From Centroscyllium fabricii (Eukaryota), in NCBI GenBank assembly GCA_051313645.2, contig JBNRSN020000022.1, positions 57,970,001 to 58,034,000 of the forward strand: a stretch of DNA of 64,000 nucleotides, in the 5' to 3' direction. The notes beneath the pieces were generated by a model. The model was not told the origin of the DNA. It made no database searches and saw nothing but the letters and a program-made list of their open reading frames with translations. Each line of letters begins with the position of its first letter. Within the stretch, counting starts at the first letter, position 1. The position numbers and the translations under genes were made by a program. Positions 797 through 60,721 of this stretch are shown in pieces.

Positions 797-1589
797 GGGC
801 TCAATTTTCCAAGCCCCAAAGATGCGGATTTGGAGGCGGGAGTGGTGGGGAAATTGCAGAATCGGGGGGCAGGAACCCATCCCGCCTCCGTGCCAATGTC
901 CCATGAGGCGGGTACCCGACCTGTGCTGGGAGCCGCATTCCCGAGGCGGGAAGGGGATTAGTGCCAATTAACTGCCTGTTAACAGGCAGTTTTTTGCCTA
1001 ATCCCTATTTTTAGCCCTGAAGTGTGAGCTGTCCAACGGCGCCGAACCACGGCGAGTTAGCGAGGCGGACCGTCAGTCGAGATGTCCGTTATGCAGGGGA
1101 GTAATGGGTGCATGTGTGCAGAGGTAAGTGTAAAGTGTTTTAATAAGTTTTACTTACATTTACTTTCTCCTGCAGGCTTCCTTCCTTCAGTTCTTGGGAG
1201 TCCCTCAGCTCAACGGCACAGAAAGCAGAATGGCCGCTGAACTGTCAAAAGCTGCAGCCTCTGTTTTCTGGTCTGGAGAGCTCTCTAACTGAGTCTTGAG
1301 TAGAAGGACTCAAGTTAGAAGACAGATTGTCAGTGTTTGACAGCTTCACAGAGCTGTCAAACGCTGATTTTTTAAATCTGTCAAAAGCTCTTGACAGATG
1401 AAATGTCAATCGCTGATGTCACCAGTAACCAGCTGTCCCTTAATTGGCCTGCTGAGCCCACTGGGCGGGCTTAACAAGGTCAATCAAGGGAAAATAGCGT
1501 GGGTTGGCCGGAAGTCGATGGAGGCGGGACCACAACCCAAACAGTGGGAGTCCTGCCTCCAAAAGCTCCCCATTGACAAAATCGAGCCC
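797..1589 (+). mobile_element. PIF/Harbinger-type MITE, copy A
   Basis: TIRs GGGCTCAATTTT / AAAATCGAGCCC, 3-bp TSD CTG (794-796, 1590-1592). An inverted homologue lies at 6550-7416. Confidence 0.8.
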
Positions 1590-3104
1590 CTGGACTCCAT
1601 CTTTGGTTAGAATATGGTTGAGCTCTGTCATGGAATTCTACATGGCATTGAGAAATAGGACAGCTGCAAAAGAGATTGGAATATGAACAGGAGTAACTTG
1701 GACCTTGGATGTGCAACTTGTAAGTAGGTTTTGCTTGTTAATTGAGGACAGTTTTGATCATTGCAAATGGGTATTATCATAAAATTGCATTAAATTCCAT
1801 CTGTTTGTTATAGTCAAGGATTCAATAAAACTAGGTACATAGTAAATGGAGATCACTATATAACTCGGAAGTCAGGTTGACAATCTGACTACAGCCCTTA
1901 TTAAGGTAAGATGTGTGAGACCGTATCCAATGGATAGTCTCAAGCCTCGTTGTTTTCACACCAGCAACGAGATAAAAGCAGTTCAGTACAAAGTCTGGTT
2001 TAATAAAATTGCATGGCTGTCTATTTCACTGCCTAGGAACATTTTAAACTTCATTTTTAATATTGAGAAGTAACACAAATTTAACCAGCATTTGGAAGCC
2101 AATGAGCAAGTGCGCAGTGCCATTTTCCATGAGCAAAGACCAACCGCAGGAGCTGGCAGCATAACTGTAGTCTACTGCACCACATTATGGTCTACAACCC
2201 CGTATTGCACTCTTTTAATACAGGACCTAGACTTGTCGTATAAGTGGCTCCTAAATTACCAATCTTAGCTAAGCAGAAGGTAGCATTTCCCCACAGTGAG
2301 GGGAAAAAATCTGAGTCATTCCAGATTGTCCCTGCATCTACCAGTCATAGAATTTTACAGCAAAGAAGGAGACCATTTGGTCCACCAAGGGCGATGGCTC
2401 TCGGCCCTATTCCTTTACCTATTCCTTTACCTTTTCTTCATACATTTTGCTTTAGTCTAACTGGGTGTGGCCATGTAACTACTTCGCCAAAAATAACTTT
2501 AAGGATGCAATCTACTCTTAATTCATATTTGTTAATTCAAAAGGTTTTGATAACATTTTATTAAAAATTTTATTTGAATTACCGGAGAATCTGATTTTTT
2601 TTTCAGGAAAGCACTGATTTTGAATTAACAGGAGTAGAGCATAGTTCAATCTATCCATGTTATGATTTTTACAGCTCATGGCTAACGGCAATTTTTGGTT
2701 AAAACATTTTTGGCTGTAAGCGATTATTTTTTTTTGGTTGTTCAGCCAGGTATCTAATGCACACGAAGCCCGCCATGGTTTTTAAGTATCTAAGCTAACT
2801 TGAGAAATCCACACGGTAGAGCTTGTCTGAGATGTGCACACAAACACTCTCTGGAGGGACACATTTCACTAGCCCAAATCCAGTAAACTTGAGCACAGGT
2901 TGTGTGGCGGGGTATTGCTCGAGTTTAACCAGCTAAACCATGCAGCTCACCAAGGCTGCTTCCCGATTGTTTTGGTCTTTGTTTATCTAGGACCACTCCA
3001 CACACTAGGCGTGCTGGGTGAATTGCAGTCAAGTGCAAAGAATCCCAGCCACCCGTGACCGATCTACACCTTCAGGCTCCATCAGTGAGCTAGGCTCCCC
3101 TGTA

Positions 3105-4222
3105 CAGGGTGCGACAAAAAAAAATTTTGGATTTCTAAAACACTTGCCCGAACACACATTTCACTTGCCCAAAAGTTTTAAAGAAATAAATAAAAAAATT
3201 ACATTTTTATTAAAATGCTTCAAGATAAAGCCATAGATTGTGATTGTTCCTGTAGTTGCATTGGCCTGGTTTCTGCCCCTCGCTCCCTAAAACTATTGGC
3301 CTCTCCATCCTATTCCACATTTAAAAATCTTTTCAAAAATCTATTTCCTCAAGCATTCACTCCATTTCTTCATTTGTCTCTTCCAAACTTTCTGTGAAGG
3401 CTCCCTCACTCTCTCTCCCCGCCTACCTTCGTCCAGCAGCCGCTCCAGGTGGGTGAAGATGCCGCAAAAGTTGGGCAGGCTCGACTTCAGCTTCTTGTCA
3501 TTCATCAGCTGCATCAAATAGTCGGGACTGGGTCTCGGCTTCTCCGTCACTTCCATTTCCCCCACCATTCTGTTATATATATTTTCCCCCCTCTGAGGAG
3601 TAATTTAAAGATTTTATAATTGATCAAAAGAATAAAGACCCAGGGCATGACAAAACCAAGGGGGCACAGACATGAGCATTTAGCCATCAATCACTAGATC
3701 TGGCTGCACCACATCAAGCACCATCTGACCTGACTCTCCTGTGCCAAAGCCGCCAGGGTCCTCCTGGGTATCAACATTGACTCAGTGGTAGCATTTTTGT
3801 CTGAGTCTTGAGGGTACAAGCCTCATTCCAGGAGTTCTCAGAAACAGCTCCGTTTTTTTCTCTTCCCCCCCCCCCCCCCCCCGCCCCCCCCCCCCAAGCG
3901 GGTCGACGGCACCGACCCACTCTTGCCACGCTGCATCAGCCCGCTCCACCTAACCCGACTGCTGCCCCGATTGACACGCCGCCTCCTCCAATCCCAGCCG
4001 CGCCGCCCGGCCCCCCTCTAGCCAATCCACACCCGCCTCCAGGGCGGGATCCACCCATCCATTCCCGTCGTCGTCAACCAATCAATTTGACGACACGCCG
4101 CCTCCTCCAATCGACCGCCGTGGCAAACCAAGACGTGGCCTCGATCATCGATGAGAAATGCATCGCACTTGCCCCTTCGGCGCATTTTGCTTGCCCCGGG
4201 CAAGCGGTTTTGTCGTGCCCTG
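3105..4222. mobile_element. Non-autonomous hAT-like DNA transposon carrying captured host sequence (Pack-TIR)
   Basis: TIRs CAGGGTGCGACAAAA / TTTTGTCGTGCCCTG (13/15), direct repeat CTGTA on both flanks (3100-3104, 4223-4227), and subterminal (CA/G)CTTGCCC motifs at both ends (about 3141, 3162, 4166, 4189). Confidence 0.75.
3427..3568 (-). pseudogene. qki: Captured copy of QKI (quaking) coding exon 1, most of the QUA1 dimerisation region
   Basis: [47 protein letters not shown] matches the QKI N-terminus. Homology stops after 142 nt at G|GTAGGC, a phase-1 donor. No further QKI exon was seen in the window. Confidence 0.9.
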
Positions 4223-17192: not shown

Positions 17193-17712
17193 CAGGTTGA
17201 GCACCATTAATCCGGCACCCGATGGTCCCCCGGCAACTTCAGTGGTTCGGCACGAATCGGAACTGGCGGCCTTCAGTTTGTGGAGCAGCCGCTCGGTGGT
17301 GCCGCCAGTTCCCGCGAAGGGTAGACAAGCATCGGGCGTTTGGGTTGCTGCTGGACAGTGTTCTATCCTCGGGCTCCCTCCCGGGAAGTGTTCTACCGTG
17401 CGCTCCGGGCCCCGGGGAGTGTTCTACCGCGCGCTACGGGCCCCGGGGAGTGTTCTATCCCCGGGCTCCCTCCCGGGAAGTGTTCTACCGTGCGCTCCGG
17501 GCCCCAGGGAATGTTCTACCGCGTGCTCCGGGCCCCAGGGAATGTTCTACCGCGTGCTCCGGGCCCCGGGGAGTGTTCTACCGCGCGCTCCGGGACCCGG
17601 GGAGTGTTCTACCGCGCGCTCCCCCCCCCCCCCAAACCTTCAGTGATCTGAATTTTCAGTAATCCGGCACCGGCCTGGTCCCGAGGGTGCCGGATTAACG
17701 GTGCTCAACCTG
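17193..17712. mobile_element. Tc1/mariner-superfamily (pogo/Tigger-like) MITE with an internal 31-bp GC-rich tandem array
   Basis: TA|CAGGTTGAGCACCATTAATCCGGCACCC ... GGGTGCCGGATTAACGGTGCTCAACCTG|TA. Unit approx. GGGAGTGTTCTACCGCGCGCTCCGGGCCCCG. Confidence 0.85.
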
Positions 17713-20223: not shown

Positions 20224-20491
20224 GTATGAACTGCTCATTCCTCAAAACAAAACAAAACTGCTGCTGTTTTATAATAGGAGTTTTACTCTTTTTTAACCCA
20301 TCCTATCATAGCCAGAGCATCTCCCCAATGGCTCTTTCTACCCCTGCAATGTTGTCTCTGGAGTCCCCCAAGGTTCTATCCATGGCCGCCTCTTCCTCAT
20401 CCACTTTCTGCTCCTTGGTGACACCATCTGAAGACATGGGATGAGGTTCTATAATGTACACTGATGACAACCAGCTCTACCTCTCGACCCA

Positions 20492-21178
20492 TCCACTCCT
20501 GTGTTAGACTGCTTGTCCACTCCTGTGTTAGACTGCTTGTCCACTCCTGTGTTAGACTGCTTGTCCACTCCTGTGTTAGACTGCTTGTCCACTCCTGTGT
20601 TAGACTGCTTGTCCACTCCTGTGTTAGACTGCTTGTCCACTCCTGTGTTAGACTGCTGGTCCACTCCTGTGTTAGACTGCTGGTCCACTCCTGTGTTAGA
20701 CTGCTGGTCCACTCCTGTGTTAGACTGCTGGTCCACTCCTGTGTTAGACTGCTGGTCCACTCCTGGGTTAGACTGCTGGTCCACTCCTGGGTTAGACTGC
20801 TGGTCCACTCCTGGGTTAGACTGCTGGTCCACTCCTGGGTTAGACTGCTGGTCCACTCCTGGGTTAGACTGCTGGTCCACTCCTGGGTTAGACTGCTGGT
20901 CCACTCCTGGGTTAGACTGCTGGTCCACTCCTGTGTTAGACTGCTGGTCCACTCCTGTGTTAGACTGCTGGTCCACTCCTGTGTTAGACTGCTGGTCCAC
21001 TCCTGTGTTAGACTGCTGGTCCACTCCTGTGTTAGACTGCTGGTCCACTCCTGTGTTAGACTGCTGGTCCACTCCTGTGTTAGACTGCTGGTCCACTCCT
21101 GTGTTAGACTGCTGGTCCACTCCTGTGTTAGACTGCTGGTCCACTCCTGTGTTAGACTGCTGGTCCACTCCTGTGTTA
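20492..21178. repeat. 24-bp minisatellite, left array (about 28 units)
   Basis: Unit TCCACTCCTGTGTTAGACTGCT(T/G)G with blocks of variant units. Confidence 0.98.
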
Positions 21179-21755
21179 AGGCCCTGTCACACCTAGGCGT
21201 TTTAGACAGCATATGCAAATTTGGCTAAAACGCTGAATTTTTGACTTTTTTTCAGTTTTGGGCGTATAATAGCGTATTCATAACGTATGCATAACGTATT
21301 AGTAACGTACACAGAACGTATCGATAACTTACAGATAACTTATACCAACGAATGCTTAGCGTGTTGTCGGCGTTCTCAACTTATGCCCAACGATAGTCTA
21401 ACGTATGCATAGCGCGCGGCAGCGTATCGCCGACGTTTTAGATAAATTTTGATAAATTGGCATACTAAATCGTCAAGTTGTGACAGGGCATGACAGGGGC
21501 ACAGGTAAAGTGTGTTCAACGATCGCCTAACGTGCCTACAACGTATGGCCAGCGTATGCGGAACGTGTGAGTCATATGCTGGATAAGTCGAGATTTTTTG
21601 TGCATGCTCAAAAATTCTCGACTTACTCGAAGTACAACGACATATGCAACGTATGCCCAGCGTTCTCGTAACGTTCCCATAACGTATCCGACGTAACCCA
21701 GCGTTTTAGCCAAATTTGCATATGCTGGCTAAAACGTCTAGGTGTGACCGGGCCT
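21179..21755. mobile_element. PIF/Harbinger MITE with long TIRs, inserted in the minisatellite
   Basis: About 55-bp TIR AGGCCCTGTCACACCTAGGCGTTTTAGACAGCATATGCAAATTTGGCTAAAACGCTG (3 mismatches to the other end), TSD TTA, interior rich in AACGTA/GCGTA motifs. Confidence 0.9.
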
Positions 21756-22755
21756 TTAGACTGCTTGTCCACTCCTGTGTTAGACTGCTTGTCCACTCCT
21801 GTGTTAGACTGCTTGTCCACTCCTGTGTTAGACTGCTTGTCCACTCCTGTGTTAGACTGCTTGTCCACTCCTGTGTTAGACTGCTTGTCCACTCCTGTGT
21901 TAGACTGCTTGTCCACTCCTGTGTTAGACTGCTTGTCCACTCCTGTGTTAGACTGCTTGTCCACTCCTGTGTTAGACTGCTGGTCCACTCCTGTGTTAGA
22001 CTGCTGGTCCGCTCCTGTGTTAGACTGCTGGTCCGCTCCTGTGTTAGACTGCTGGTCCGCTCCTGTGTTAGACTGCTGGTCCGCTCCTGTGTTAGACTGC
22101 TGGTCCGCTCCTGTGTTAGACTGCTGGTCCGCTCCTGTGTTAGACTGCTGGTCCGCTCCTGTGTTAGACTGCTGGTCCGCTCCTGTGTTAGACTGCTGGT
22201 CCGCTCCTGTGTTAGACTGCTGGTCCGCTCCTGTGTTAGACTGCTGGTCCGCTCCTGTGTTAGACTGCTGGTCCGCTCCTGTGTTAGACTGCTGGTCCGC
22301 TCCTGTGTTAGACTGCTGGTCCGCTCCTGTGTTAGACTGCTGGTCCGCTCCTGTGTTAGACTGCTGGTCCGCTCCTGTGTTGGACTGCTGGTCCGCTCCT
22401 GTGTTGGACTGCTGGTCCGCTCCTGTGTTGGACTGCTGGTCCGCTCCTGTGTTGGACTGCTGGTCCGCTCCTGTGTTGGACTGCTGGTCCGCTCCTGTGT
22501 TGGACTGCTGGTCCGCTCCTGTGTTGGACTGCTGGTCCGCTCCTGTGTTGGACTGCTGGTCCGCTCCTGTGTTGGACTGCTGGTCCGCTCCTGTGTTGGA
22601 CTGCTGGTCCGCTCCTGTGTTGGACTGCTGGTCCGCTCCTGTGTTGGACTGCTGGTCCGCTCCTGTGTTGGACTGCTGGTCCGCTCCTGTGTTGGACTGC
22701 TGGTCCGCTCCTGTGTTGGACTGCTGGTCCGCTCCTGTGTTGGACTGCTGGTCCA
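21756..22755. repeat. 24-bp minisatellite, right array (about 41 units)
   Basis: Same unit, changing stepwise CTTGT>CTGGT, CCACT>CCGCT and TTAGA>TTGGA. Confidence 0.98.
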
Positions 22756-23438
22756 ACATCTAGTCCTGGATGACCCACAATTTCCTCATTTACTTCCATT
22801 TAATTCAACCATTTCAGCCCTCGGCCCTCACCACCAATTCCATTCCCCTTCCCGGCCACTGTTTCAGTTTGAACCAGACTGTTCGCAACTATTTGACCCC
22901 GAGCTGAGCACTGAGCTCATTTACTCTACATTACAAAGACTGCCTACTTCCATCTCCACAACATTGCCTGGCTCCACCCCTGCGTTAGCTCACCAGCTTC
23001 TCAAACCATCACGCATACCTCCAGACTTGATTACTCCAATGCTGTCCTAGCCAGCCTCCAATGCTCCACCCTCCATAAACATAAGTTGTTCCAAAACTCT
23101 GATGCTTGTGTCCTATCCTATATCAAGACCCCCTTATTCATCACCCTTCTGCTTGCTCACCTTCATTGGCTTCTTGTTCAAATTTAAAATTCTCTTCCTA
23201 GTGTTTAAATCCTTTCATGACCTTGCCCCTCCCTATTTCTGCAATCTCCTCTAGCCTTCTAACCCTCCCAGAACTCTTGTGTATTCCCCCGCGCTCTCTT
23301 TCCATCATTTGCAGCCATGCCTTTAACCATCTAGAGCCTACGGCCTGGAATTCCCTCCCCTAACATCTCCATCTCCTCCTTTTAAGACCCTCCTTAAAGC
23401 ATATCTCTTTGGCAAAGATTTTGTCATCTCTCCTAATA

Positions 23439-24377
23439 CAGGTTGAGCACCGTTAATCCGGCACGGGCGGGACCAGGCCCGTGCCGGGAAATGGAAAAAA
23501 CTGGGAGAACGAGTTTGGACACTGCGCATGTGCACCAGTCAAAATGGCAGCGCGCATGCGCGCAACATTGGTATTGGCTGTCGCGCGCATGCGCAGATCG
23601 TCCAATATTGGCCGCCGCGAAGTTTTTTGATGGGCTCAGGCTTTTGTGGCTGTCGGGCAGCAGTGAAAGGCCGGTCTTGCGGGGGGAGGCAGGAGGGTGG
23701 CGCGGGTCGGGGGGCGGGGAAGGTGGCGCGGCGCGGGTCCGGGGGTCGGGGGGGGGAAGGAGGAAGGCGCGGGTCCGGGGGGGGGAAAGGATTGTGGCGC
23801 GGGTCCGGGGGGGGGGGGGGGGTGGAAAGGAGGGTGGCGCGGGTCCGGGGGGGGGTGGTGGAAAGGAGGGTGGCGCGGGGGCAATTTATCCAATCCCGTT
23901 TTGCTTTCAATTGTAAGAGGTCACACGGCGCCAGGCTGTGGTCCAACGGTTTTAGTTGGGGTCACGGGCTTTCGGAGCGCCGCTTCCCCGTCAGGTGATG
24001 GGGGAGCGGCGCTCCGAAGGCTCGTGATTTCGAGTGGGACTTTTGGACTACAGCCTGGTGCTGTGTGGCTTCTTACAATTGTCCATCCCAGTCCAACACC
24101 AGCACCTCCACATCATGGCTTCAATTACAGTTATCGATAAAATAACCTTGAATTATCTGCGCATGCGCTAACCTTCCGGCGACGCATGCGCAGATCATTC
24201 AAAACACCCGCAGCTGTTTTGAATGATCTGCGCATGCGCTCGGCGCATGCGCAGATCATTCGTTGAAGCCACGATGGCGGCTGCCATTTTGCGCATGCGC
24301 AGTGCAGTCGGGGCAATTTGTGCCGGCAGACTGAAGCTGCCGGCTATTCGGTTACCGGATCAACGGTGCTCAACCTG
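23439..24377. mobile_element. TA-flanked MITE (same TIR family as 17193) carrying G-rich repeats and a Penelope-like hairpin
   Basis: TA|CAGGTTGAGCACCGTTAATCCGG ... CCGGATCAACGGTGCTCAACCTG|TA. Confidence 0.85.
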
Positions 24378-25287
24378 TACTGTATATCCTTATCTGGTAG
24401 AGTGTCCATTTTTGTCTACTTATGCTTCACAGAAGTTCCTTGGGACATTTTTTCTGCATTAAAGGTGCTATCTGAATGCAAATTACTTTTTTTTGTTGGA
24501 GCTAATAAGAATAAAACCTAGGAATGGGTAAGAAATTAGCTGAAATCTAAGAAGTAGCAGCTACCTTTTTTTAAAGGTGTTGGGTCAGGGTGTGGGAAAT
24601 GTTGAGTTGGATGTAGAGCATCAGCCTATCACTGATTGCACCTTCCATTCCTCCTCTCTGCTTTACATTTGCAAGTCTCCTTGTTCATTTATCACCCCAC
24701 TTCTGAGTGTCCCTCTCCAGCACATGAAATAATAGCATATTGCCATTGTCCAGAACTCCAAGCACTCATTCTGTGTGAGATAGCAATGTACATGTAATTT
24801 TGCATTGCTGCTGATAATGCTGTGGTATTGTATAAAGCATTTTTTGGAAACTTTCTCATGGAACCTTAAATGGGTAGTGTGGAGTCCGTGATAGGATAAA
24901 TTATGCATGTTTTATGGAAGAGTGGTTTTGACAGGCATTTGAGCTGTTCTCGGATGTTGCGCCTCCTTGTGTTCTTTCTGAAATGGTTGAATTAAATGGA
25001 AGTAAAATCCATATTCATTACAATTCCATTTATGGTTCTATGGACTGATTATTCTTTGAATGTTGACTATTGGATCATTGAAAATCAAAGATCTGTATTA
25101 TTAAAACTTCAGATTTGCTGAACGAGCTTTGTTCTCGGTCTCGCCAAGGACTACATTAAACCACTTTCATGTTCTCCATCGGGGATTTAAAAAAAAAACT
25201 GAAGTAGGTTTCCATTGCAGAATTCAAATGCTTTGTTTAATGTCTTCTTAACCAATATTGGTATCTTGTATTGATTTTATTTTCTAG

Positions 25288-25427: not shown

Positions 25428-26050
25428 CAGGTTGTGCACCGTTAATCCGGCAGCCGATAATTCGTCACCTTCAGTGGTCCGGCACGAATCCCGCTGGCCA
25501 GCCCACGTGATCCCAGGGACGCTCGCGATGCGCGGGCCTCTCCCCGACTGGTCTGTACATGCGCGGCGCCCATTTTGAATGGTCTGTGCCTGCGTGGCGC
25601 CCATTGTGAATGGTCTGTGCCTGCGCGGCGCCCATTGTGAATGGTCTGTGCCTGCGCGGCGCCCATTTTGAATAGTCTGTGCCTGCGCGGCGCCCATTTT
25701 GAATGGTCTGTGCCTGCGCGGCGCCCATTTTGAATGGTCTGTGCCTGCGCGGCGCCCATTTTGAATGGTCTGTGCCTGCGCGGCGCCCATTTTGAATGGT
25801 CTGTGCATACACGGCGGCCATTGTGAATGGTCTGTGCATGCGCGGCGGCCATTGTGAATGGTCTGTGCATGCGCGGCGACCATTTTGAATGGTCTGCATG
25901 CGCGGCGACCATTTTGAATGGTCTGTGCATACGCGGTGGCCATTTTGAATGGGCTGCGCATGCGCTCCCCGAACCTTCAGTGGTTCGGATTTTTCAGTGG
26001 TCCGGCACCGGCTTGGTCCCGAGGGTGCCGGATTAACGGTGCACAACCTG
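25428..26050. mobile_element. TA-flanked MITE (same TIR family) with a different internal 31-bp tandem array
   Basis: TA|CAGGTTGTGCACCGTTAATCCGG ... CCGGATTAACGGTGCACAACCTG|TA. Unit GAATGGTCTGTGCCTGCGCGGCGCCCATTTT, about 12-13 copies. Confidence 0.85.
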
Positions 26051-27561: not shown

Positions 27562-28449
27562 GGGTGAAAAATTGGCGCCTTAGCGCCGGCCCATTAGCGC
27601 CGAAAATCGGCGCTAATGGGGCAGCGTCGACGTAACGGCCAAATTAGCGCTGGGCGCTAAATTGGCCTAGTGGTTAGCGGCAGCGTTAAACGTTAGTGCA
27701 GCGCCGTCTGGCTATCAACAATCGTCATGGCAATGCGTGTGCAACGCCCGCCGGTGGGTTATGCCCGATATTGGGCTTAGCGCGGGGGGTGGTGGAAAGG
27801 CGCTATCAACGCCAGCTTTTGCAAGCGCTGCAGCGGGTTTGAGTGGCCGCTGCAGCGCTGCTAAAAGGGCCACCCTCCCTCTTCGGTCCGAGCACGGCCA
27901 GCTGATGGGGGGAGTCGGCCTGAGGGGCCAATTGATGAGAGAGCGGGGACGGGGCCAGGCTCTCTGATCAGTTCCCGATCGGTGGGTCGCCGCGACCCAC
28001 CGATCGAGAACTGATCAGAGAGCTGGCCCCCGAATCTGCGGTCTTCTGTCAGGAATCACGCTGTGTTCCGTGTTCATTCTTCCAGAATTTATCTTCAGCA
28101 AGTCAGAGCCCCCTCAGCTTTCCAGTGCAACACCCCCCGATCGGGGGGGTCGGGCGATCCCCCAGTGGCAACTGATCAGAGAGCACGGAGAACAGCTGCT
28201 GCTCTGCTTCCCCTTTAAGGCCTCATCGGCTGCAGAGGCTATGGGGAAACAAGCAGTTAGTGAGGGAGCGCTGCACCCGGCAACGGCCATTAGCGGCAGC
28301 ATATTGGCCGCCTGGAAGACGTGCAAGGCGTGAATTCGCGCCAAAATCATCAAGGCCACTGCTAGCGCCAATATCGGCTGCACCGGCGCTAAATTTTAGC
28401 ACATCGCCAAATTTAGCACCCAATCCGTGCGCTGACGAATTTTTCGCCC
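27562..28449. mobile_element. Harbinger-type MITE rich in TAGCGC/GCGCTA motifs
   Basis: TIRs GGGTGAAAAATT / AATTTTTCGCCC, flanks TAT/AAT (one mismatch), and internal palindromes. Confidence 0.7.
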
Positions 28450-33560: not shown

Positions 33561-35094
33561 TCCGGATTAACGGTGCTCAACCTGTAATCTGTTCCTGTTT
33601 AAGGATATTCAGCTTTCTTTATACTATTGAACCGTCAGCTCATTGAGATTGTTTTTCAGTCAGTGTATACTTTAAATATCCAGAGAGTGAACCAATGAAT
33701 ATATCCTTGTTTTTCATCATTCACAGCCATGCATTTTAAAATAGGGTTTGAGTAACCAAAAGTAGGTATATAATGAATATTTCCAATTATGTAGAACAGT
33801 GGGTAATCTTGAGATCCTAAAGCTGTTTAGTTGATTTTTATAAATGTCTTCTGAACCTCAAAGTTGTTGGTCTTTTTACATAACCAAATGTGCTCCATTG
33901 GCTTCTACGAACAGAGTTAATGTTCCAAAATCAAGACTGTTGTATGTCTAGTTGATTTGCAGCCACACAAATTGGCAGCAGTCTGGTCTTTTTTTTAAAC
34001 TCCTGTTGGTAAACTTCACTGGAGTGCGTCTGGTTTTTCATAAATTCAAGGGAGCATCTTCTAGGCTCTCAAGCAATCTTTCAAAATACCAGTTTCTAAG
34101 AAAATGCATCTGTAACCATTGTATAAGTCAAAGGAACAGATATTCACCCTCCGAGCTACTTGCTTTGTTTGCTAATAGTTTTAACTGTCACAAAAAGATA
34201 TCTCAAAGATTGCTCACCTTTGTAACAGAATTGATTTGCTTACATGTCTGGATGATGTTGCCAAGGGACAGCATGTATTTGAGTAAGAGGAAGGGACCAA
34301 GGATAGACCACTGGGGGATTCCACGGATAACGATGCATAGGCAGGAAGAGAAACTATTGCTGAGGTGCTCTGGCTGCAATCAGAAAAGTAAGAGTGGAGC
34401 AAAGTAAGAGTTGGAACTAAGTGAGAGCAGTCCTAACCGAGGAGAGGCATTGGAAGAGGATGTTGTGGTATACTGTGTCAAAGGCTGCAGATTGATCAAA
34501 GAAGGATAATGCAGCACGGTCACTGTCTTGGAGGATGTCATTTATTTACAAATGGCTTAGTTAGTGCCATTTTGGTGCTGTATCTCTCTCCCTCACTCTC
34601 ATTCATTCAAAAATTTACATTTTTTAACTGTGAACCTAACAAGTGATAATTAGAGGCTGTTTTAATAGCACAACATGTTGATGATCAGGAGACAATTAGA
34701 GGCTGTTATTGAGCAATGAACACATTCCAATGAGGAACAATACTCTTGCTGAAGTTTATAGAACACAAAACAATAGCAACAACAGGTGTGCAATCAGTAG
34801 TCTGTTGTTTTCTCGCACAAACAAAAAGCCTTTTTTTTAAATAACTAAGCTTTTCATTTTAAAAGAACTACTCTATAAACTTCCTGAAATAAAGCTTTTG
34901 AAATGTGACCTCCAGCTTCATACAATTTTGAGAAACAAAAAATAACAGCTGAAATTTCTAGATGCTAAAGGAAAAATATTCCATCTGTACAGCTGACTGT
35001 ACTGCTGCATCCTGGGAAATTGTGTACACTGCACATGCTCAGAATGCACAATCTGGATTCAGCTCAAGGCTTTTGTGAGAAGCAGATCTTAACA

Positions 35095-43817: not shown

Positions 43818-44036
43818 TAGGTTGAGCACCGTTAATCCGTTACCTGAAAAATCGGCAACTTCGAACGTCCGGCAATAATTTCCCCGACTGCCCCGCGCAT
43901 GCGCAAAATGGCCGCCGCGATTCATGCTTAGGCGAATGACCTGCGCATGCGCCGCCGAAGCTTCAGTCGTTCAGGATTTTCACTTTCCCGGCACGGGCCT
44001 GGTCCCGCCTGTGCCGGATTAACGGTGCTCAACCTG
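43818..44036. mobile_element. TA-flanked MITE, minimal 219-bp member of the CAGGTTGAGCACC family
   Basis: TA|TAGGTTGAGCACCGTTAATCCG ... CCGGATTAACGGTGCTCAACCTG|TA. Confidence 0.85.
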
Positions 44037-46432: not shown

Positions 46433-47152
46433 CAGGTTGTGCACCGTTAATTCGGCACGGGCGCGTCTAGGCCTGCGCCAGTATACCGAAAAAGCCGGGA
46501 GAATGAAGCCGGCCAGTGCGCATCGCGCACCATTCAAAATGGCCACGTGCATGCGCATAACATTGGAAATGGCCGCCGTGAAGTTTTGAAGAGTCCTAAA
46601 GAAATGTTAAATAACAACAGAAAAACGCTGGAGAAACTCAGCAGGCCAGGCAGCATCGGTGGAGAGAGGAGCAGAGTTGGCGTTTCAGGTCGATGTCCTT
46701 TTTTCAAAACTAGAGAAGCCGGGAGGGGAGATAGATTTTAAAGCTTGTGGGGGAATGTTTATGGATGTGATAGGTGCAGACGCGGAGCTTCTCACTCCTC
46801 GCGCACATAGAGGGAGCAGACCTTTTCATCCACAATGTTGGTGCGGGAAACATTTCACATTCGCATTATTATCCCACCGGCTTCAGCCCAGCTTTTACAA
46901 GGAAGCCGCACCGCTGGCCGCTCAGTGCCATCTTCCTCACCCGCCCACCCGCAGCATTCTGGGAGCACAGGCACCACTTCTCTTCCAACGGCCGTTTTGA
47001 ATGATCTGCGCGTATGCTTGCATGCGCAGATCATTCGGCGAAGCATCGATCGCGGCGGCCATTTTGCGCATGCACAGGACAGTCAGGGCAATTTGTTCCG
47101 GAAGACTGAAGCTGCCGGCTTATCGGGTAATGGATTAACAGTGCACAACCTG
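46433..47152. mobile_element. TA-flanked MITE (same TIR family) with about 370 bp of unrelated cargo
   Basis: TA|CAGGTTGTGCACCGTTAATTCGG ... TGGATTAACAGTGCACAACCTG|TA. The arms match those of 23439-24377 but the interior differs. Confidence 0.85.
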
Positions 47153-59946: not shown

Positions 59947-60721
59947 GGGGGGAACTTTTCCGGAAGGGCGGGAACCTGGCGGGGATTGGTCGGGGCGGCT
60001 TCCGGTCCCGCCCGCCCAACCAGCTGGGAAGGCCACGCAATTTTAGGTTAATGAGGTCGTTAAAACCCCGCCAGCGGGAGGTAATTAGGTGAATCGAGTC
60101 GGACTGCAGCGGAGCTGCGAGCACTTAAGAGTCACAGCTCTAGCACTGGTTGTTGCCAGTTCCCCAGGCAACACTCCACTGTGACATCACAGTGGAGTGG
60201 AGCCAATGGGAAAGGCCAAGTGCTGGTGACTGACAGGTGGGCGGGCGGGCTCCGAATCGCTCACAGCTTGCAGCAGCTGAGAGGCCATGGTGAGAACTGA
60301 GATTGCTCAGTTTCTGGTCTCAGCTGATATTGAAGGCAGAACGGAGGTACTTACTCCTCTTAAGGTGCTGGAGGCATGCCAAGCATTTGGCAGCATGTGC
60401 TTCAGACCTTAAAGGAGAAAGTAATAAATTCAGGAACTCACACAACACCAGGTTATAGTGCAAAAGTTAAAAGCAGCGTTTAAGGTGGCGGGGTTAGGGC
60501 GGCAAACAGCGCAAAATGGCTGAGGGCCCTTAAAATGGCATTAAAGATGCCAATTATGGGCCCTTAACGAGGTGACAACCCATCCCCGCTGGTCAGTGGC
60601 GGGAAGGTTTGGGGGCGGGAAAATGAGAAAGCGGCGGGGAGGGGCGGGACCCGCCGGTTCTGCTATTTTGCCGGCCGGGCCACCGAAAACCCCGCCTCAC
60701 GGGGACATGAAAATTCCCCCC
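59947..60721 (+). mobile_element. PIF/Harbinger-type MITE
   Basis: TIRs GGGGGGAACTTTTC / GAAAATTCCCCCC and TSD ATT. Confidence 0.8.

Follow-up and report, generated by a model that had tools for sequence, protein, structure and literature searches.

How does a DNA transposon come to carry a long hairpin whose arms mispair almost exclusively as G.U? The question is raised by positions 23908-24081 of the window, a 64,000-nucleotide stretch of the Centroscyllium fabricii genome (contig JBNRSN020000022.1, positions 57,970,001 to 58,034,000, forward strand), to which coordinates refer unless a locus is named. The original prediction was that an edited Penelope-like RNA had been reverse-transcribed and now rides in a MITE.

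A hairpin rich in G.U pairs

Gap-free re-pairing of the arms reproduced the predicted composition exactly: of the 86 positions 67 are Watson-Crick pairs, 17 are G.U, 2 are other mismatches and none is A.C. Four shifted registers of the same arms gave only 20-22 Watson-Crick pairs. Both strands fold strongly, with -157 kcal/mol (z -17.3) for the + strand and -106.5 kcal/mol (z -9.8) for the - strand. A scan of the window for long hairpins returned four, and this hairpin alone has a G.U excess. A second hairpin at 27950-28032 is near perfect and unbiased (36 Watson-Crick pairs, 1 G.U and 1 A.C). The features of the locus are:

23439..24377, Tigger/pogo-type MITE of the young subfamily B, with TA at 23437-23438 and 24378-24379
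23439..23461, + strand, left terminal inverted repeat (TIR), 23 bp
23680..23880, + strand, G-rich repeat of variable length within the MITE
23902..23912, + strand, left copy of the 11-bp target-site duplication of the Penelope-like insert
23908..23993, + strand, left hairpin arm, an inverted, tail-less copy of the Penelope-like terminus with A>G on the + strand
23966..23994, - strand, hammerhead relic whose core descriptor passed in the unedited ancestor and failed in the window
23995..24023, + strand, hammerhead relic whose descriptor failed already at the palindrome junction and which A>G altered further
23996..24081, + strand, right hairpin arm, a Penelope-sense copy of the terminus with A>G on the + strand
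24082..24115, + strand, unpaired Penelope "tail", an internal control in which no A is changed
24116..24126, + strand, right copy of the target-site duplication
24355..24377, - strand, right TIR
60426..60468, + strand, unedited fragment of the source terminus, matching the source consensus

Source of the hairpin arms

The arms trace to a repeat terminus with 67,040 exact 24-base matches in the genome. Its organization supports the predicted source, a Penelope-like element. Copies of this source form palindromes in which an inverted arm without a tail is combined with a sense arm that has one, and a minimal hammerhead core (as defined in a passage of PMC4209133 and searched with a regular-expression descriptor) matches both the source and the - strand of the unedited insert, as a match of sequence alone. 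Passages of PMC8557442, PMC4209133 and PMC11167929 describe Penelope-like elements with an inverted 5'-truncated copy, a 30-40 bp tail and a minimal hammerhead. The likeness to these elements, as described there, extends to the inverted tail-less arm, the tailed sense arm, the terminal hammerhead and a single ORF with RT and GIY-YIG; the difference is that the insert here comprises only ~200 bp of termini. One source copy, L262, has an uninterrupted 919-aa open frame (1133-3889) between two arm copies, and several more frames of ~919 codons occur among the Penelope-like matches listed, so the family is probably young. The Pfam match of the L262 frame to RVT_1 is weak (E 0.007, under the cut-off). 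Support for GIY-YIG in this frame comes from Atlas neighbours at 0.95-0.96, in which 11-27% of members carry the domain; Pfam gave zero GIY-YIG matches in the source sequences searched. Different Penelope palindromes occupy one site of another repeat in L065 and L076, an apparent insertion hot spot.

Compared with 43 source arms, the window hairpin has A>G on the + strand in both arms but not in its unpaired tail. The fragment at 60438 has A where the left arm has G, as had been noted, and agrees with the source consensus. The source has A, and the unedited state is ancestral, which upholds the predicted A>G direction over C>T. CpG decay and APOBEC were rejected as origins of the pattern: for 14 of the 17 G.U pairs the base on the G side is A in the source, and only one pair involves C>T.

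The prediction that both ribozyme cores are disabled proved correct, with a correction as to timing. Two degenerate hammerhead cores are present in the window hairpin and both fail the descriptor that the source passes, but the edits removed only the - strand core, the + strand core having been broken earlier, at the junction formed on insertion. Rfam searches of the window and of one unedited palindrome returned sub-threshold, miRNA-like matches and no hammerhead; the best match in the window scored 47.3 bits, below the gathering score of 80.

The carrier

A carrier of MITE type was borne out at 30 fetched loci, all of which have distinct flanks, TA at both ends and a perfect 23-bp TIR. A 25-base degenerate pattern has 2,649 matches in the genome, and among the first 100 of these 94 are of the window type (subfamily B) and 6 of an older type (subfamily A). 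The hairpin is shared in its edited form: all 40 scored matches (of 384 candidates in the 7.2-Gb assembly) are 100% identical over 191 bp. Because the pattern is inherited, the probability of 2^-17 originally attached to the absence of A.C pairs is inapt, as it assumes independent changes in a single copy.

We assign the carrier to the Tigger/pogo type because a longer ancestral copy, L198, retains transposase relics matching HTH_Tnp_Tc5 (PF03221, E 6e-13) and DDE_1 (PF03184, E 5e-11); judged by these domain matches, the MITE is derived from an element with a CENP-B-type HTH and DDE transposase. It resembles Tigger/pogo (Tc1-mariner) MITEs in its TA duplication, its 23-bp TIR and the relics in long copies, and differs from them in that its lineage has changes that imply passage through RNA. 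MITE length varies from 844 to 1040 bp, and the G-rich repeat is the likely main source of this variation. The same TIR family, with other interiors or ends, occurs in the window at 17193-17712, 25428-26050, 43818-44036, 46433-47152 and 33562-33584, in every case without the hairpin. Long arrays of a 24-bp minisatellite lie at ~20336-22757. At another locus, L018, a subfamily-B MITE has inserted at a TA within an unedited version of the terminus that the MITE itself carries.

Capture preceded editing

A pattern for subfamily-A flanks matched 54 loci, 30 of which were fetched. Most were empty elements with a single target site; three contained the arm unedited and two edited. A follow-up search raised the copies with the long ancestral flank to eight filled but unedited and six edited. 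In insertion site, target duplication, loop junction and one rare G, the eight unedited copies match the edited ones. They also have the long right flank seen in empty elements, and one of them, 5 kb in length, has both TIRs. The left target duplication is single in empty elements, perfect in subfamily A and decayed in the window, and it contributes the first 5 bp of the left arm. Empty elements occur with subfamily-A flanks; when subfamily-B flanks were used to look for an empty site, the four matches were all filled copies with a point change. The genome thus holds a series that runs from the empty element to the unedited hairpin (eight copies), then to 19 A>G changes, to four more, and lastly to T>C changes opposite G only. 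Editing is therefore later than capture and came in waves: an unedited hairpin entered the element, at least two waves of change on the + strand followed, and a third wave, of T>C, came after them.

In wave 1, 19 of the 51 A in the hairpin became G, compared with 3 of 952 A in the rest of the element, and no intermediate carrying part of the 19 changes was found among the MITE loci aligned. This wave is located in elements of ~4.8 kb with both TIRs, and therefore needs either a long retrocopy or later recombination. A non-exhaustive search of 14 long-flank copies gave no donor/copy pair for this wave, and 17 enlarged loci gave no shared junction. The edited long-flank elements L237-L241 have an extra insertion of ~450-720 bp, some 344-1012 bases right of the hairpin centre, that is absent from unedited elements and may mark the wave-1 event.

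Wave 2, seen in L159, added four A>G changes at 23919, 23940, 23948 and 24019. In wave 3, seen in L164, L184 and subfamily B, 9 of the 24 T that face G changed to C, as against 0 of the 26 that face A (P=0.0005). One of the nine reverts a C>T private to L159 and L131, and seven occur in the window. The T>C changes were gained stepwise across L164, L184 and B, and a T>A at 24047 restores a pair; these observations fit hairpin repair at the DNA level better. G.T glycosylases are enzymes of such DNA-level repair. We accordingly lean slightly towards hairpin-templated DNA repair or conversion for wave 3. Editing of A.C mismatches by ADAR on the minus strand fits the 9:0 direction and is a plausible but less favoured account; ADAR editing at A-C mismatches is described in a passage of PMC7955049.

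Relative to the unedited ancestor, 23 of 50 duplex A are now G in the window and 0 of 9 tail A. Of the 17 G.U pairs 14 were A-T pairs in that ancestor, two were already G.U and one arose by C>T. Depletion of edits after a 5' G is weak in the window alone (3 of 11 after G versus 20 of 39).

The same signature at other loci

Two A>G patterns gave 39 and 40 genome matches, and none of the 39 had only the two required changes. Sixty loci were fetched and 14 dropped (five MITE copies and nine duplicates or siblings), leaving 46 standalone loci. With the pattern columns excluded, these A>G-ascertained loci contain 457 A>G, 25 T>C, 23 C>T and 9 G>A changes; in their tails A>G occurs at 2 of 162 A. 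The A>G sites vary from locus to locus, and the edited strand is Penelope-sense or antisense about equally often. The signature is thus genome-wide, at dozens of A>G-ascertained loci, and the initial view of a single hairpin was too narrow.

The neighbour context, weak in the window, is clear when these 46 A>G-ascertained loci are pooled: editing follows G at 56 of 268 A (21%), T at 118 of 205 and A at 188 of 337 (56-58%), and C at 30% (P=1e-14). Depletion after an upstream G is reported for ADAR in passages of PMC3197674, PMC4365171 and PMC2873906. Enrichment of a 3' G is slight (0.455 versus 0.36-0.44).

The pairing bias recurs as well. With L079 left out of the pair counts, 16 double-edited palindromes have 501 G.U and 33 A.C pairs, against 66 and 55 in 15 unedited palindromes. 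Within the double-edited palindromes A>G is found at 382 of 869 A in the duplex, 9 of 231 in loops and 4 of 132 outside. Editing of first-strand cDNA, or twin-primed misincorporation, was rejected for the double-edited palindromes; it predicts T>C in one arm, which was observed at 21 of 858 sites. Across the 46 A>G-ascertained loci we therefore see the features of an ADAR-like footprint, namely dominance of A>G on one strand, restriction to duplex and depletion after G. The predicted roles of ADAR and an RNA intermediate agree with this signature, which affects both arms on one strand; we infer them from DNA. A_deamin domain matches, a domain common to ADAR and ADAD, lie on five contigs.

An inverted partner within 1.5 kb was absent at 22 of 23 single-arm loci. 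In the palindromes L070 and L087 the 5' arm alone is edited, with 16 and 15 A>G changes against 1 in the other arm; these are possibly chimeric copies. A>G clusters also lie in SINE sequence, at ~1740-2000 of L109 and ~1550-1620 of L078 (edited-strand orientation), and the process therefore extends beyond Penelope termini. In L078 an inverted SINE partner lies within 1 kb.

SINE or LINE tails downstream of many edited copies

A sense SINE or LINE 3' tail lies downstream on the edited strand at 29 of 49 edited loci and at the mirror position in 4 of 49, while unedited controls in the same test gave 6 of 29 and 5 of 29, respectively. Collapsing three sibling sets leaves 25 of 45. At the other 20 of the 49 edited loci a retro-tail of the one type tested was absent within 1.5 kb.

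Two donor/copy pairs have the form of LINE-type retrocopies: a block end at a sense tail, new flanks and a donor elsewhere. In the first, L227 is an unedited palindrome in an intact MITE. L228 (the same locus as L089) reproduces ~1.25 kb of L227 within an LTR-like repeat; it begins inside the MITE, and is thus 5'-truncated, and ends at a SINE 3' repeat. The copy differs from L227 by 40 A>G in the hairpin region and by mixed changes in the flanks. Pieces of the edited L089 sequence, including its junction, have zero differences from short-read contigs of runs X2 and X4, which belong to one study and represent at most two samples.

In the second pair, L251 and L252 have in common a 2.49-kb block, a whole MITE inside a LINE, which ends at the LINE tail; L252 is the inserted copy because it splits a repeat. 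L252 has G at the four wave-2 sites, and L251 has A at three and T at one. Both have a right TIR lacking 4 bp and two private changes absent from B, so L252 as it stands is not the direct parent of B. The wave-2 sites would thus have reached B through a sibling copy, through recombination, or because hot spots were edited repeatedly. L253, at the same LINE site, was considered as part of this pair and rejected as a separate insertion, being 90.6% identical with other ends. Across L251, L252 and L253, two MITE subfamilies occupy one TA of a LINE, an apparent insertion hot spot.

The sibling sets L104/L109/L117 and L071/L078 are blocks of ~0.9-1 kb that end at or just beyond a SINE tail, and their edits differ between siblings, some lying in SINE sequence. 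Fixation of the edits by reverse transcription is more readily linked to downstream SINE or LINE tails than to the insertion step of Penelope itself.

Alternative explanations

The main rival for wave 1 is rewriting of a resident DNA copy in place, by repair templated on edited RNA or by ADAR acting on an RNA:DNA hybrid, with no new insertion. We think this unlikely, although it would explain both the edits inside a 4.8-kb element with both TIRs and the palindromes L070 and L087, edited in the 5' arm only. According to passages of PMC7955049, ADAR1p110 edits A-C mismatches in both strands of hybrids, and RNA-templated break repair is reviewed in part of PMC12686478. That hybrid editing required A-C mismatches, however, as the same passages of PMC7955049 state, and most sites here were A-T pairs. 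Nor does rewriting in place predict the tail bias (29/49 versus 4/49) or the truncated, tail-ended copies, and a supposed pair of edited and unedited alleles at L089 was discarded, since the second version is a paralogue located on a different contig.

A process with no deaminase, whether misincorporation by reverse transcriptase, strand-biased mutation or selection for a G.U-tolerant RNA hairpin, appears improbable. The later changes in lineage B do keep or restore + strand pairing (9/24 versus 0/26), as in compensatory evolution. Against this, the changes do not extend past the edge of the duplex, are rare in loops and tails, disfavour a 5' G and vary from one locus to the next; C>T, which also gives G.U, is nonetheless rare (23 versus 457); and the MITE loci aligned include no intermediate between the unedited and 19-site states.

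We give still less credence to the order originally proposed. In that scenario the MITE would have received its insert by reverse transcription of a Penelope RNA that was already edited, and copies lacking the edits would reflect later conversion or independent insertion. The insert does have a target-site duplication, other repeats have taken up Penelope more than once at a single site (L065, L076), and the standalone edited palindromes may include such cases. The same insertion is nevertheless unedited in eight longer copies, with identical site, duplication, loop junction, rare G and long right flank, and editing before capture cannot explain waves 2 and 3. Finally, although long hairpins can disturb sequencing, a sequencing or assembly artefact is hardly conceivable given 2,649 pattern matches with fixed states, cleanly assembled unedited palindromes and the short-read contigs that reproduce the edited L089 pieces without a difference.

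Discussion

We consider it likely that the hairpin was captured unedited, edited on read-through RNA, probably by ADAR, returned to DNA, probably as a LINE retrocopy, and multiplied by transposition to ~2,600 copies. A Penelope-like palindrome inserted unedited into a Tigger/pogo DNA transposon, whose read-through transcripts would fold at the palindrome. ADAR would hyper-edit this folded RNA within the duplex and on one strand, a LINE reverse transcriptase priming at a downstream SINE or LINE tail would copy the edited passenger, and transposase would spread the edited element; template switching during gap repair may bring edited interiors into mobile elements. We infer that the enzyme was ADAR, that the intermediate was RNA and that the main 19-site wave took this passenger route too. 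Host function is unnecessary for the explanation.

A broader reading, which we offer tentatively, is that in this genome ADAR and LINE reverse transcriptase together act as a routine germline mutator of any inverted repeats that lie upstream of a SINE or LINE tail. The lineage would then have passed through RNA three times (+, +, and - with A.C converted to I-C), and the breaking of the palindrome and loss of the ribozyme would have let the edited lineage grow from ~8 to ~2,600 copies.

Fixation of edited RNA in DNA has a precedent in retroviruses, and probably in mammalian retroelements too. Hajjar and Linial reportedly found A>G hypermutated inverted repeats fixed in retroviral proviral DNA. 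That case and ours share an edited hairpin RNA fixed by reverse transcription; there, however, the retrovirus copied its own RNA in culture, whereas the edits here are in passenger sequence, are heritable, occur at many loci and were amplified by a DNA transposon. Hyper-editing of inverted repeats by ADAR is described for RNA in parts of Carmi 2011 (PMC3197674), Porath 2014 (PMC4365171) and Zaranek 2010 (PMC2873906). The differences in those passages are between RNA and DNA, whereas here G is in germline DNA, and the downstream-G enrichment is slight. APOBEC editing (G>A) of LTR retroelements in vertebrate genomes, described in passages of Knisbacher and Levanon (PMC4866542, in whose main text the word ADAR has zero occurrences), likewise left a deaminase footprint frozen in genomic copies and detected against source copies; the enzyme and the change are different there, and the passages describe edits not limited to duplexes. 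Within the open-access literature, which was our scope here, we found neither a DNA transposon whose lineage was edited in waves nor donor/copy pairs on this scale, and nothing linking ADAR to Penelope-like hammerhead elements.

A passage of a 2016 review (PMC4982230) described the role of editing by ADAR in how repeat subfamilies evolve as not determined. The present lineage offers a worked case in which editing defines transposon subfamilies, and in which a class II element took on changes by way of RNA. Edits made in RNA are not normally inherited. In this genome their footprint appears to be fixed in germline DNA at dozens of loci while unedited donors survive, and germline ADAR activity and site preference therefore become readable from the genome alone. 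The same findings carry a warning, since clustered A>G differences in repeats can be encoded in the DNA itself and can skew estimates of repeat age.
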